In this document: positions 37,893 to 51,692 of the stretch, one piece after another
How positions within the stretch are numbered: the first letter of the stretch is position 1
How the letters are laid out: each line of letters begins with the position of its first letter
Assembly: GCA_977018835.1 (NCBI GenBank)
Contig: OZ361258.1
Location: forward strand, 2,542,001 to 2,606,000
From: Minutocellus sp. GHC0000111
Lineage: Eukaryota
Length of the DNA stretch: 64,000 nt
Direction: 5' to 3'
Translations under genes and position numbers: made by a program
Notes under the pieces: model-generated
The model's database searches: none
What the model saw: the letters and a program-made list of their open reading frames with translations, nothing else
Told to the model about the DNA's origin: nothing

Positions 37893-38071
37893 TACGTCTT
37901 CCCTGCTGCAATTATAGTTGCATACTTATACGATTTTAAGATGTTAAATATACGACGCTTATTTTTGTAGCTCACTATTGTTGAATGAACTGGAGGCTCG
38001 TGCCGGCTTACTTTTTCCCCGGATGTTCCCCTGTATTTGATTTCTGTATGACGTCATAGTCTGACACATTC

Positions 38072-38105
38072 ATTTAGTTTTGTTGAATATTCAGCATTAG
38101 TAAAC
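38072..38105. repeat. 34-bp palindrome copy (downstream of RepHel)
   Basis: ATTTA gttt TGTTGAATATTCAGCA ttag TAAAC. Confidence 0.85.
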
Positions 38106-40058
38106 ACGGGAGTCATCGCTTTATGCTTTGCATGCTCTCCATTCTTTCATGCTTAAAATGTCTTCTAGGTTGTTGGTGCTCGTTCGGAACGTCTTTGCCC
38201 ATGTGATTAGTTCTTCTTTTTCTTTGTTGTCCCAACTTGGTCTAATGGTGTTTTTGTCTAGTCTTTCTATCCATTTTTGTCTCAGTTGCACTTTCTTGCA
38301 TGGTGTTTTTCAGTCTCGTTGGTATTTAAGTCCTATGACTCTGTATGTATTCATGTCTTTTCCTGAAAAATATAGTGCTGAGTCTAGTCTTCCTGTTCCT
38401 GATGTCGTAGCTCTTGATGTTCCCATGTACAACAAGCCGGGGTTGTTTCCTTCGAATTTGTTGTTTCCTGGATAGAACACTACACAATCTACTGCATTTT
38501 TTGGTTGGCCTTCATCCACTGGTCCTGCTGATTGCCCCTGGAATGTGTGGGCTGTCACTCCGTATGAGAGGCTTAGTGGGCAGTATGTCACTTCGCAGCA
38601 TCCTTTGTTGCATCTTCTTGTCACCATTGGAATTGGGACTATTTTTGGTTCCGACTCGTCCCATGCTGGCCCGCTGCATCCTTCAAACCTCACAGCTACA
38701 TAACTCTGTTGGTCCCCATTGTTTGGGTCTTTCCCTGGTTTGAACACTATTTCTTCTACAGTTCCGATGGCGTTGTTGAACAGTCCAAAGTCTGGCTCGA
38801 AATTTTTCCCTGTGATTCTGACCACAGACCCTCTGCACATTAAAGTTGCTGCATCTGGTGGGTTGTCAAAGTGCTGGGCGATGGACTGTAGGTTTGCTCG
38901 TCTGCTTGTTTTCCATGAAGCTTTAACTAGTGCCGCGGGGTTTCTGTCGGATGCGTTTTCACTTAGTTTCCTCACGTTGTACTCGTCTCGTGGCGCTTTT
39001 GTGGCGAACATGTGCATTACTACTTTGTCCTTTTCCATTTCCTCTGTCTCCGCTTGAGTTAGGTTTGCCAAATGTAACTTCATTAAAAAGGATGCATCGT
39101 CGTGTGTGGGGTCTCCTGTTCTTAGATTCTGTAGCACTTCCTTGAACTTCGACTGTGTTCCATTTTGACGTTTTACTGACCTAAGCTCTACGCATTTTTC
39201 TGACATGTTCATTAGGAGTTGTGATCCAAATGATGCGTCGCCTAGCTTTTGTTGTGAAAATGATGTCTTGCTGTCCATCAGATCGAAAGCTCCTTTCTCT
39301 ACATTTGTTGGCGGTGGTAGTTGGTAGTCGTCGCCTACAAATACAATCACTGGTATGCCACCCCAGTCTTCATTAGCGTGGGAACCTCCATGAGCGGCTT
39401 CTGCAGTGTGCCTTTCTGCTGCTCCCACGACTTTACATGTCAGCATGCTTCTCTCGTCGATTATCTCGACCACTGTTCTTCTTTTCGTTTCCTTTAATCG
39501 AGCTTTCGCCTCCTTGCCAATATCATTTTCTGGCCTGTGTGGATTTACTTGGAATTTCCTGTGTATCGTTTCGCCGCCGACGTTGTGAGCTGCTGCTCCT
39601 GTCGGCGCAGATATGTGAACTGCGTTTTGATCGCCAAACATCTCTCTGACCGCATTTGCCAGGGCCTTAATGAAGAAACTCTTACCTGATCCTGCTGCTC
39701 CCCTTACGGTCATTCTAAGGGGCTTGTACTCTTTAGCATCCTTTTTGTTGATTCCCTTTGCGCTTTCTATCCATTTCTTTATGTTTTCCACTACCAATAA
39801 AATCACGTCGAGTTGGTCATCTTTCACGTGGTCTATGGTGATGTTTGTCACTTCACCGTCGAGGGTCATCGTGAAAGGCCTTACCCTCTGCTTGGCAGAG
39901 AGGTCTGCTTGGTAGCCCTGTGTTAATTCATCGAGCCACGACTCTCCTAGGTATGAAGGATCCCTAGTCTTTTTTTTTTTTTAATGCGTGATAGAATTAA
40001 AAAAAATATCGGATGTTGTGTCGAACAAAAAATTTCCCTTGTTGGATGTATTTTTGTC

Positions 40059-40092
40059 ATTTATGTTTGTTGAATATTCGACGAAAATAAAT
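40059..40092. repeat. 34-bp palindrome copy (RepHel intron 4)
   Basis: ATTTA tgtt TGTTGAATATTCGACG aaaa TAAAT. Confidence 0.85.
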
Positions 40093-41439
40093 CAGGTATA
40101 AATGACTTACTGACATTCTTTCGGACCAGTCGTAATGTAGGCCTTTATTGATTTTTTGGTCGTGGACATTTAAAATCGGGTCTGTGGCCAGTGTTTGAGT
40201 CGTGATGATATTTAAAAGATCTTTGGTTGAGTCGTCAACATCTGCTTGTGTCTCGTAGTCGTAGCACTCCTCTGATGATATCGCTTCGGATGGCCTCTTG
40301 CTCTCGGCTCTTTCTTTTACTCGTGCGTATTCCATTTTCACGAATTCTGGACACGCTTCTGATGTGACAAATTCTTTGAATTCGTCGATCCAATCTTGTG
40401 CTCCGTTCCTTCTTTTTGGCTTGCTGTCTTCCCATGGTTTGTGTACTATGAGAATTGCCATCGCGTATTCTTTTGTTGGTGGGTATTTCGGCTGACCGTT
40501 TGCCCCAACGTAATGCGGGATTACGTTTTTGTATTTCCTTTTTCCGTTTTTCACTGATCTCTTTTTCTCGTTGATTGCCTTACGAACGTAATCGTGTAGT
40601 GACATTGTCGGATTGCTCTTTGCGATTTTTCGATATTGGGACACTAAGTCTCTGTGAGTATCCGATTTAATCTTGTAACTCCCTGACAGGTTTATTGTTT
40701 CGGTTGTGTCGGAACTTAAGACTAGCGGGAGTTCCGCTAGTTCGACCATACACTCTTGCTTTGGAATTGTTCTGCTTGCAATTGATCGGTTGAGCATTTG
40801 TCGAGACACTCTGATGACGTCTGCTGTTGTCCCAGTCATCGTTTCAGCGCTTTTCTCAAATAATAATAAAAACATGCAGTCTCGTTGTTAGTTTGAGATT
40901 GAAGCATAAAATATACAAATACTAATTCATACTCACTTTAAGGCAAAATCGCGGAGAAGTTGTATTTCAGCTTGGATTCTCTCATTTCCTTTGCATTGGT
41001 AAGCGACGACATAGTCGGTCACTGTTGATATTTCTTCGGGATGTGGTTTTCCATTCGTGGATTTGTACAACAGGATTTTAAAGTCGCAATTACCTCTCCA
41101 ACCTCTCAAAATTGTTAGCGGAGCTTGGACCAAACGCGGATGATTCCGTGGCATCTCGAGTTTCAGAAATCCCCTGTGGTCGTGAGTAATAGCTGGAGCA
41201 TCCCGCATTGGGAAACCAGGAGTGTCGTTTCTATTCTTTGTTTTTTCTTCTCCGGCCCCAGCACGGCAGCATCTTTTCTTCTTATTCTTTCCTTTTGGAT
41301 GTCTCATGCAATATCCACTGCATGTGTGCATCATGCATTCTTCGCGTAGTTTAGCCTCATCCTTTCTGTAGTCCGTAACATCTGCAAGTCTGATCGTCGA
41401 TGCTTGCCTGGTAAAATTGTAGGAGTTCGATGGATTGGT

Positions 41440-41473
41440 ATTTATTAATGTCGAATGTTCAACAAACGTAAAT
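41440..41473. repeat. 34-bp palindrome copy (RepHel intron 2)
   Basis: ATTTA ttaa TGTCGAATGTTCAACA aacg TAAAT. Confidence 0.85.
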
Positions 41474-50530: not shown

Positions 50531-50579
50531 GAATGATTAATATATATGTATATAATACTAGCAAAATTAAAGAAGAGAT

Positions 50580-50613
50580 ATCTACAAATGTTGAATATTC
50601 CACAAAGATAAAT
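50580..50613. repeat. 34-bp palindrome copy (between convergent ORF B and ORF C)
   Basis: ATCTA caaa TGTTGAATATTCCACA aaga TAAAT. Confidence 0.85.
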
Positions 50614-50634
50614 AGAGCGAGGTACATGAAATCT

Positions 50635-51465
50635 TCAGAGCTGACCGTAATCATCAGGACCAGAAGGATCGAAATGAGGACCAGATCGAAAGCATGATCT
50701 GAGGTAACGAAAGACGGGAGACGAGGAGGCAAAAACATCGCTAGGGAGATGGGGGTTGGAGTCAAAATTAGATCTGAAAACGTAAGCAGCGGATCCAACG
50801 TTGGCATCACGTACATAGAGCATGGGGATTTCATCGGAACAGATTGACTCTCTGTCAGCTGCATGGATAACACGTAAGACGTCGACTTGCTCAAGCTGGT
50901 TCACAGCAAGAAAAGATGCTATGAAATGGCAAAAAGAAGCATGAATAGGACCTGCAGATGCCGCGCCGGGGCCGTGAGGTTCGGAAGCTAATGATTGGAC
51001 AAAACGTGCAAATTCAGGATGCCGAAAGACCGTGCGAAACGTCGGGACACATGACATTACAAAAGGTAAAACAGAACCACTCCAATCAATGTCCGACCCA
51101 GAACGACGAAGGCGAAAAGAGCTATGAGGTCGACGGAAGAAAAATATCCCGTCAATGCGATAAACAGTACGACTGAAGATATCAATAATAAGACACCGAT
51201 CGACGAGGCTCGACGAAGAAGAGAGACAACCAAAAGACCGAGGAGATTCGAGAGACCGAGATACAGGATCGACGACAGCGGAAGATACAAATATAGAACG
51301 AGACAGACAAAGATCGACGATGAAGGAGTGAAATTCATTCGAGAGAACGATATCAACGAATGACGGGGACGAGAGATGGGTAGAGGCGCATTGGCGACAG
51401 TGAGAGGACAACCACAAACGACGAAAGAATTCCTTGCCGAGGGGAGAAGCCGCAAACGAATCCAT
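50635..51465 (-). CDS. Helitron cargo ORF C, unknown function
   Basis: Open frame of 276 codons from ATG 51465 (MDSFAASPLG), rich in S/F/R; convergent on ORF B. Confidence 0.45.
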   Translation of the reverse strand: MDSFAASPLGKEFFRRLWLSSHCRQCASTHLSSPSFVDIVLSNEFHSFIVDLCLSRSIFVSSAVVDPVSRSLESPRSFGCLSSSSSLVDRCLIIDIFSRTVYRIDGIFFFRRPHSSFRLRRSGSDIDWSGSVLPFVMSCVPTFRTVFRHPEFARFVQSLASEPHGPGAASAGPIHASFCHFIASFLAVNQLEQVDVLRVIHAADRESICSDEIPMLYVRDANVGSAAYVFRSNFDSNPHLPSDVFASSSPVFRYLRSCFRSGPHFDPSGPDDYGQL

Positions 51466-51658
51466 GGCAGGGAAACAGAAGAGACAAGAAACACCACGAC
51501 GACACCGCCACGAGCGCAACGAAGACGACGATGTACAATTACAATGGAGCTCACACGGCGCACCGATGCAGGATACGATCGACGGCCACGATTTGAACGC
51601 GCACCTGTGAGCAGAATGTCTCACTACTTTCCATATGACGTCATTATACGTCTCGGCC

Positions 51659-51692
51659 ACATAGGATTGTTGAGCATTCAACATTAGTCAAT
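51659..51692. repeat. 34-bp palindrome copy (right end of the element)
   Basis: ACATA ggat TGTTGAGCATTCAACA ttag TCAAT. Confidence 0.75.

Follow-up and report, generated by a model that had tools for sequence, protein, structure and literature searches.

An HLE2-type Helitron-like element in Minutocellus sp. GHC0000111 carries an array of family-specific 34-bp dyad sites throughout its non-coding parts, and such a dyad array is a trait of the clade to which the element belongs. We regard it as a serious, if still tentative, possibility that the dyads are parS-like loading sites for the protein encoded by cargo gene A, and that this protein keeps the element active. The reading is founded on the array itself, its confinement to introns and gene gaps, the conservation of site positions with changed sequence, a common arrangement of genes A and B with Rep-Hel, and the invariant P..N and GxxR motifs of gene A. 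Features of the window, by which we mean the whole 64-kb stretch analysed, were as follows.

37895..52122, minus strand: HLE2-type Helitron-like element of about 15 kb, a decayed copy of a multi-copy family
38048..38057, unstranded: CRE-like 10-bp palindrome, 14 nt from dyad site 1
38072..38105, unstranded: dyad site 1, lying 3' to the stop codon of Rep-Hel (PWM)
38310..44335, minus strand: Rep-Hel gene (HUH Rep plus PIF1) of 5 exons, from ORFs, Pfam matches and RNA joints
40059..40092, unstranded: dyad site 2, in Rep-Hel intron 39969-40110 (RNA joint)
41440..41473, unstranded: dyad site 3, in Rep-Hel intron 41408-41501 (joint in 1 of 4 RNA runs)
43669..43702, unstranded: dyad site 4, a perfect consensus, in a predicted Rep-Hel intron at about 43607-43739
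44676..46289, minus strand: gene B, encoding a conserved protein, directly upstream of Rep-Hel; its 5' part is deleted in the window copy
45544..45577, unstranded: dyad site 5, in gene B intron 45499-45626 (4 of 4 RNA runs)
46289..46290, unstranded: deletion junction, where at least 1.15 kb present in sister copies (the divergent A/B promoter region) is missing
46290..50530, plus strand: gene A, encoding about 1300 aa and running divergently from B (RNA joints, motifs)
48853..48886, unstranded: dyad site 6, in gene A intron 48815-48968 (4 of 4 RNA runs)
50580..50613, unstranded: dyad site 7, in the gap where genes A and D converge, between their stop codons
50635..51462, minus strand: gene D, an ORF found only in the window and in relative L001
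51635..51644, unstranded: CRE-like 10-bp palindrome, 14 nt from dyad site 8
51659..51692, unstranded: dyad site 8, 5' to gene D, varying among copies

The original prediction of a Helitron-like element was supported by Pfam matches to DUF6570 (E 4.7e-20), Helitron_like_N and PIF1. DUF6570 is a marker of HLE2 (PMC11417382), and the HUH Rep and PIF1 helicase share one ORF, as expected of that group. Depth of the element contig was about 5-10x that of the host flank in three DNA-type runs, indicating a multi-copy family, and in such runs copies were integrated at several flanks. The right end of the element lies at about 52121-52122, where a loose end accompanied a drop in depth at 52122 (DNA-type runs). 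The left end is broken by another transposon, and other copies run at least 69 nt farther left than 37893 (DNA-type runs). Inverted repeats of 14-18 bp were present at the termini of L011, L013, L031, L038, L048 and L050 among 19 loci examined, the left end of the window copy being missing. HLE2 elements insert between T and T; no empty insertion site was recovered from the DNA-type runs, and viral contigs gave no match to the exact dyad pattern or to the Rep alignment. In-frame stops interrupt both Rep-Hel (41621-41623) and gene A (48673-48675) in the window copy; the former is confined to this copy, with another letter at 41623 in 4 of 4 DNA-type runs.

All eight of the 34-bp dyads originally reported were present. 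With a PWM scored leave-one-out across the 64-kb window, these copies reached 27-43 bits and every other position scored 8 bits or less; the host DNA of the window is devoid of the dyad, as had been stated for host genes. Six copies fit the 34-bp pattern at no more than 3 mismatches, versus none in 100 shuffles. A ninth, "decayed" copy proposed at 37933 had to be dropped, with a score of -0.3 bits. Confinement to introns and gene gaps held, as did the placement of five copies within introns, all short and distributed over three genes and both strands: four of these introns are spliced in RNA, and that around 43669, which has no listed RNA joint, is predicted from frame and splice signals. Three RNA-supported introns are free of sites (40850-40936, 47082-47185 and 48071-48168). 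Positions of the core and arms, described as conserved, were complementary in 5-8 of 8 copies, and those of the 4-bp spacers, described as variable and non-pairing, in 1, 1, 4 and 2 of 8. At site 8, contigs break in two DNA-type runs, and 15 core nucleotides are absent from one RNA contig. Site 7 also falls within a minus-strand joint (50409/50813) seen in 1 of 4 RNA runs. Two features had been missed earlier. The CRE-like palindrome occurs only twice in 64 kb, once beside each terminal dyad, and the segment deleted from the window copy holds, in sister copies, two more dyads about 22 nt apart. This segment was seen from loose ends and joints whose depth equals that of the contig running into 46290. 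For a joint at 43703-45541, site-to-site recombination was considered and rejected, as the joint represents the deleted promoter segment with its two additional sites.

Sought among related elements, as had been suggested, the window motif itself did not recur: its PWM, scanned over 80 relatives, gave 0 sites at 12 bits or more. Instead, 23 of 34 related families possess an array of their own, each with its own sequence, compared with 0 of 34 local-composition resamples (shuffles); the refined motif search left out 14 of the 80 loci, each under 4 kb, and L009 was omitted from the tree. These arrays consist of family-specific palindromes of 30-38 bp, one per 1-3 kb, placed in Rep-Hel introns and gene gaps across a clade that shares the gene A, gene B and Rep-Hel layout. 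Spacing is even (CV 0.13-0.59), several families have clusters of sites 50-100 bp apart, and many conserve the arms but not the centre. Within Rep-Hel spans, 49 of 64 sites lay outside protein alignments against 5.4 expected, and the remaining 15 fell at alignment gaps or gap edges. L001, a full-length syntenic relative, has counterparts at matching places for 8 of 8 window sites and for the deleted pair, all of unrelated sequence; window site 1, for example, matches L001 site 15327 in position, beside alignable flank. Family PWMs cross-match chiefly sister families, and the lower the Rep identity between families, the less alike their motifs (similarity 0.82 to 0.22; Mantel rho 0.22, 71 of 5000), the dyad motif being wholly different between elements with 68% identical Rep cores. 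Intron positions vary between sub-clades, yet sites are present in them, and introns with sites are longer than those without (median 100 versus 77 nt, p=4e-4). No array was found in 11 of 34 families. Full-length L031 is among these and has both gene B and gene A, the latter with DGLHR. Neither L031 nor L056, also devoid of an array, yielded a dispersed family in a repeat search, and in both of them box I has H in place of R. A host control yielded a weaker array in 1 of 4 host stretches (11 sites, 14-22 bits).

Compensating changes at mirrored positions were found in 39 of 834 deviating pairs versus 88 expected, and this lack of covariation argues for protein binding over hairpins. Along with family-specific turnover at conserved positions, it indirectly favors the original view of a protein-binding site rather than a hairpin or MITE. 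That the dyads form hairpins, in RNA or as cruciforms, are the footprints of introners or serve lox-like recombination (13-8-13 layout) is largely refuted. This view would accommodate the 34-bp length, the longer site-bearing introns and the occupancy of introns whose positions vary by sub-clade, but, beyond the missing compensatory change, predicted folding of the sites is weak (-0.6 to -8.9 kcal/mol) and Rfam gave 0 matches to them. Moreover, similarity stops at the 34-40 bp site, with no common intron sequence around it of the kind that introners or MITEs would leave; many families keep arms and not centre; and neither a recombinase gene among the window ORFs scanned nor a site-to-site joint among the joints listed was found. 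That the sites are enhancers serving a host HSF or bZIP transcription factor deserves hardly any credence. An HSF gene lies nearby, GAAnnTTC occurs within the core, and a CRE-like palindrome adjoins each of the two terminal sites. Heat-shock elements comprise three or more alternating nGAAn units. The heat-shock element originally suggested amounts to a single GAAnnTTC pair that does not appear in consensus sites of other families, and the idea found no support. A host factor, furthermore, is not expected to switch specificity by family, whereas the 30-38 bp dyad differs from family to family and the window motif is missing from 80 of 80 relatives and from the window's host DNA.

The original proposal of an element-encoded binder gained indirect support, with gene A, a cargo gene of predicted ParB/Srx fold, as the candidate. 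In an alignment of 13 gene A sequences, P, N and G..R are invariant, with GxxR in 13 of 13. The fold is predicted for gene A of relative L013, whose model (pLDDT 83, pTM 0.86) was compared with 48,161 chains. All 12 matches at Z>=2 (VIA) were ParB/Srx-fold proteins, at low Z values of 2.1-5.2, with PadC the best (Z 5.2, rmsd 3.7, 99 aligned) and KorB second (Z 4.0). The longest overlaps were with SspE, BrxU and a DndBCDE-DndI entry, all of them sensors of modification rather than clamps on parS. Box II GxxR follows a strand and precedes a helix in this model, and Foldseek returned nothing for the fold at E<=0.001. Position and two motifs, box I-like NPR (47375-47383) and box II-like GxxR (48184-48195), weakly suggest that window gene A shares the fold. 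A box II profile ranked GxxR first in both window A (1/1275, score 4.1) and L001 A (1/625), and box I of window A ranked 117 of 1283. Window A had no HMM match to the modelled clade, with HHalign probabilities of 1.3% and 1.8%; its ParB-like domain is split by an intron, and the structural match is that of L013. The gene A sequence had no match in Pfam, NCBIfam, PHROGs, PADLOC or PDB, and neither a 2OG-oxygenase nor a methyltransferase domain came to light in it. A model of its last exon gave no fold match and no identifiable HTH, C-terminal dimer, DNA-binding or DNA-modifying domain. Homodimer prediction for the ParB-like domain, made without an alignment and on an uncertain fold, scored 0.00, a value that carries no weight for or against a dimer.

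Binding by the gene B protein or Rep-Hel, with the sites helping to load helicase, package strands or sustain processivity in replication or transposition and A acting otherwise, such as in DNA-modification sensing like DUF262/DndB-type ParB folds, appears unlikely. Even site spacing would suit it, as would the overlaps of A with SspE and BrxU. So would the status of gene B as the most widely conserved cargo gene, with homologues in 23 of 28 loci tested and an identity of 11-32% that indicates fast divergence. However, B also occurs in array-less families L005, L021, L031 and L056 and has no recognisable fold and no family, PDB or Atlas match, and a Rep-core identity of 68% between elements goes with a wholly changed motif. 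We judge it less probable still that protein A loads at dyads to hold, tether or segregate excised circles in the style of plasmid ParB, or that dyads are origins like baculovirus hrs. The predicted ParB fold of A, Helitron2 circles reported in Fusarium (PMC5148889) and the resemblance of 50-100 bp site clusters to hr palindromes (PMC13513840) are consistent with such roles. On the other hand, copies are integrated at several flanks, and partition would need one cluster alone. Furthermore, no ParA-like gene was found among the window ORFs scanned, in a copy without the deleted segment, and no end-to-end (circle) joint among the joints listed for four DNA-type runs, in which contigs drop rare forms.

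If the dyads are instead parS-like sites for gene A, its protein, with a predicted ParB/Srx fold, would bind them as a dimer and may spread or clamp between them. Coating of this kind would likely hold off silencing and maintain transcription across the entire element, and introns would be retained as the one place where long coding genes can accommodate a site. The CpG ratio of the element (0.95 versus 0.93-1.04 for host) reveals no CpG depletion and thus no sign of methylation pressure. A more elaborate version is doubtful: that a widespread aquatic Helitron clade runs a bacterial-type ParB-parS sliding clamp in the eukaryotic nucleus, NTP-gated, loading at intron palindromes, coating the 15-kb element and co-evolving for self-only recognition, with introns gained or kept as housing. 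ParB-like accessory genes are already known from other algal transposons, and we found no literature report of them in Helitrons. For the algal proteins, binding to the element that encodes them has been proposed, with the cognate site so far undefined. The present clade supplies candidate pairs of protein and site, over 20 in number, whose dyads are long, well defined and mostly not cross-reacting, which makes self-binding directly testable by swaps. If true, a ParB clamp would act on eukaryotic chromatin, where the usual ParB-fold member is sulfiredoxin (ParB-fold survey PMC12704722). It would also constitute a second self-recognition system alongside VANC, suggest a selective reason for intron retention and provide orthogonal DNA-targeting parts for algae.

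Several known systems share parts of this design. Baculovirus homologous regions, which are enhancers and origins, likewise group imperfect palindromes of about 30 bp into scattered clusters, close to which lie CRE-like sites (PMC13513840), but are viral, intergenic, IE1-dependent and more heavily clustered, and the resemblance is architectural only. HLE2/Helitron2 elements have the same DUF6570-Rep-PIF1 transposase, and their termini, with short inverted repeats and a hairpin at the 3' end, have parallels in relatives of the window element (PMC11417382, PMC5148889), whereas conserved A and B genes and dispersed dyads do not figure in the available text of those descriptions; "ParB" has 0 occurrences in PMC11417382. 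KorB/OB of RK2 (PMC11790492), BisD/bisS of ICEclc (10.1101/2024.09.16.613209) and VirB combine a ParB fold with GxxR, as predicted here, with loading sites on their own mobile element and long-range gene control, putative here; KorB is also the second structural match of the L013 model. Gene A, unlike these proteins, is eukaryotic and intron-containing, has a large insertion between boxes I and II and no identified HTH, and the dyads are twice the 16-bp OB length (PMC11790492). Closer in setting are algal DDE transposons with ParB-like accessory genes, Plavaka PAG3 of Bostrychia (10.1101/2025.02.11.637652) and Sola1-1_Ec32 of Ectocarpus (PMC12477816), the latter encoding a 1104-aa protein on the strand opposite the transposase. 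These also carry a ParB-like protein of more than 1000 aa, and inverted repeats in the element, in one case in arrays adjoining the gene, are proposed as putative binding sites of that protein. Here, in contrast, the carrier is a rolling-circle Helitron, gene A has no detected 2OG-oxygenase or methyltransferase domain, and sites turn over by family and occur as one cluster per 1-3 kb at matching positions rather than in a tandem array beside the gene, though supplements on PAG3 and Sola1-1_Ec32 may describe related arrays. In the VANDAL/VANC system of Arabidopsis (PMC5735166), where the element-encoded binder lifts silencing marks, the motifs are 8-9 bp tandem repeats and "palindrom" has 0 occurrences in the paper, whereas the Helitron dyads are long, two-box and mostly single; Pfam reported no VANC similarity for the window element. 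Nonetheless, both systems place family-specific motifs in the introns, intergenic and terminal non-coding DNA of the element, where they co-evolve with an element-encoded binder, putatively so in the Helitron.

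The 34-bp palindromic motif (dyad) is present in eight copies between 38072 and 51692, as the original prediction held. Scored leave-one-out with a symmetric PWM, the copies reach 27–43 bits against no more than 8 bits in the rest of the 64 kb, and an unbiased repeat search retrieved the same eight-member family. Two pattern searches returned 6 and 12 matches versus shuffle means of 0.00 and 0.28; four of the latter 12 were a three-mismatch core inside a host tandem repeat. A ninth, decayed copy proposed at 37933 scored −0.3 bits and is not supported. Five dyads had been placed in introns, and four of these (named by start: 40059, 41440, 45544 and 48853) lie in introns spliced out in RNA contigs (four runs from two studies; one of four runs for 41440), whereas the intron around 43669 is a prediction only. 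Three further introns spliced in RNA contigs are site-free. The regions of the terminal sites (38030–38125 and 51617–51712) have about 70 bp of direct similarity in common, including a CRE-like palindrome that the 3' site of L001, a full-length syntenic relative, retains with one mismatch.

The dyads belong to the second of these features:
35730–37894, presumed Tc1/mariner-like DDE transposon, inserted at a TA in the left end of the Helitron
37895–52122, minus strand, Helitron
38310–44335, minus strand, Rep-Hel
44676–46289, minus strand, gene B
46290–50530, plus strand, gene A
50635–51462, minus strand, gene D

The DDE transposon, which we assign to that family on the strength of a DEKWF motif and a TA end, is covered very deeply by both RNA and DNA contigs and is apparently truncated at its own left side; a 24-bp inverted repeat (37675–37747) lies in its upstream region. 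Pfam domains on the minus strand of the Helitron are DUF6570, Helitron_like_N and PIF1. DUF6570 is reported as a marker of the HLE2 clade (PMC11417382), and the element is a member of HLE2. Three long Rep homologues were found, the sole named one being from the diatom Chaetoceros tenuissimus. PAP fibrillin places the host among photosynthetic eukaryotes, and it is likely a diatom. In three runs, DNA-type contig depth across 37893–52121 was ~5–10 times the right-flank value, although depth does not equal copy number, and the contigs were unbranched over as much as 6.9 kb; together these fit a young multi-copy family. The window copy is decayed: Rep-Hel has an in-frame stop that four of four DNA-type runs read otherwise, gene A has a stop, the DDE transposon interrupts the left end, and a deletion at 46289/46290 has removed at least 1.15 kb. 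What was lost is the promoter region between the divergent genes A and B, with two further dyads ~22 nt apart, so intact copies carry at least ten. Strand skew is mirrored over 37900–52100, pyrimidine-rich left of ~44400 and purine-rich to its right. Elsewhere, 18528–32000 holds four identical 3397-bp tandem copies with part of an ABC-2 transporter gene, either a recent amplification or an assembly artefact.

In two of four runs, an RNA joint (44336–46011) links an exon of gene B with the first one of Rep-Hel, and alternative splicing may give both genes a common first exon. The first Rep-Hel exon (43710–44390, minus; L001 8803–9531) ends in a stretch that is presumably ubiquitin-like and has an RGG/KGG motif; Pfam gave no match there. 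The gene A intron 47082–47185 is GC–AG in four of four RNA runs, with a 4-nt insertion at the donor in one DNA-type run. Starting at the right end, a spliced minus-strand transcript (50412–50814, 51710–52035) crosses gene D and continues in antisense orientation into gene A in one to two of four RNA runs.

Metagenome contigs were scanned for relatives and the best 80 of 223 related loci analyzed. None of these 80 carried the window motif; a de novo dyad search found own, different arrays in 48 of the 66 loci of at least 4 kb and in 23 of 34 families at 85% identity. The same pipeline found no array in 34 local-composition resamples, none in three of four host stretches and a weaker one (14–22 bits) in the fourth. 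Sites are 30–38 bp long with information peaks 5 and 14 bp off axis. Within Rep-Hel spans, 49 of 64 sites fall outside protein alignments versus 5.4 expected (0 of 200,000 simulations), and the other 15 sit at alignment gaps or gap edges, mostly at relatives' predicted introns. Among array families, 49 of 78 putative Rep-Hel introns contain a site, and site-bearing introns are longer. Positions recur in the intron before the zinc-finger region, in introns near residues 546–616 and 959–1012 of P0002 (the numbering reference) and directly after the stop. The dyad feature is real and general. No array was detected in 11 of 34 families, including the full-length L031, where A and B are both present. 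Subterminal or internal tandem repeats of 40–110 bp units occur at L044 2146–2850, L048 5094–5746 and L031 126–527.

Sites hold their places while their sequence turns over. L001 (15,445 nt; Rep 66–69% identical to the window's) shares the window's gene order D, A, B, Rep-Hel and has counterparts at matching places for each of the window's eight sites and for the two deleted ones, plus two additional site clusters; its site 5905 lies inside a possibly coding open frame. The 3'-end sites of the two elements share an alignment column as centre and an alignable flank, yet are unlike in sequence. Sister families on the Rep tree have motif parts in common, PWM cross-matches fall mainly between sisters, and motif similarity declines with Rep divergence, being 0.82 where Rep identity exceeds 80% and 0.22 where it is below 45%. 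Because kin share traits, this trend shows the motifs turning over gradually and does not speak for their evolving jointly with any one protein. A family's sites all changing together would be expected from selection for one element-encoded reader, and conversion among sites could contribute. Service to a host factor is the least probable explanation of the dyads. Hairpins, introners or recombination sites are scarcely more credible; compensation in only 39 of 834 deviating mirrored pairs versus 88 expected, with no Rfam match to the dyads, makes a hairpin unlikely.

Which protein reads the dyads is a matter of likelihood. Reading by B or Rep-Hel is unlikely. B homologues occur in 23 of 28 loci tested, and a gene A, large and divergent, also recurs among related loci. 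The gene A alignment (13 sequences, three sub-clades) has only six invariant columns, among them G..R and P..N, the latter of which we take to be box I-like. GxxR is described as the ParB box II motif (PMC12704722). In the array-less sisters L031 (4608–6467) and L056 (2269–3984), an H stands at the box I position where the remaining 11 A sequences of the alignment have arginine; as a single event, a tie to array absence is suggestive only. An AlphaFold2 model of the gene A domain of the relative L013 (pLDDT 83, pTM 0.86) matched 12 of 48,161 chains at Z≥2, the best being PadC (Z 5.2, rmsd 3.7, 99 aligned) and the others KorB, SspE, pNOB8 ParB-N, BrxU, Osa, Atu1540, two sulfiredoxins, free serine kinase, DndBCDE-DndI and SbnI. 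We take all twelve to have the ParB/Srx fold, partly from their titles, and the list points unanimously to that predicted fold, though scores are low; Foldseek gave nothing significant for the model. Window A and L001 A are homologous (24%, E 3e-21) and have NPR and INGxKR in common, the latter ranked first by a box II profile in both. Profile comparisons tie them to the modelled clade weakly (1.3% and 1.8%), so for the window's own A we infer the fold. The last exon of gene A gave no match to a DNA-binding or modifying domain.

We tentatively favor, at somewhat below even odds, a model-based reading in which A would load as a dimer at the dyads and then spread along the element, keeping it active. 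This is weakened by the array-less families, L031 with its A and B included, by the longest structural overlaps of the L013 model being with modification sensors, and by the lack of CpG depletion in the element. That A instead serves circle maintenance is less probable than reading by B or Rep-Hel.

ParB-like accessory genes have been reported from algal DDE transposons (10.1101/2025.02.11.637652, PMC12477816). Plavaka PAG3 of Bostrychia adjoins tandem inverted repeats, and a role in binding the element that carries it and modifying it has been proposed (10.1101/2025.02.11.637652). In Ectocarpus, the Sola1-1 element has a gene for a 1104-aa ParB-methyltransferase opposite its transposase (PMC12477816). 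The ParB clamps KorB (PMC11790492) and BisD (10.1101/2024.09.16.613209) are described as long-distance regulators of their own mobile elements, and phage ParBs are reported to be able to activate DNA dioxygenases (PMC13229309). VANC proteins of VANDAL elements bind short motifs that are specific to each family and lie in element introns and gaps (PMC5735166). A literature search, with most subscription papers outside its reach, found no ParB-like gene or dispersed intronic dyad array described in Helitrons, and the three-gene layout and self-specific arrays are apparently undescribed so far. The element most probably works in the manner of the ParB-accessory and VANC systems, a kind that is known but in part hypothetical.
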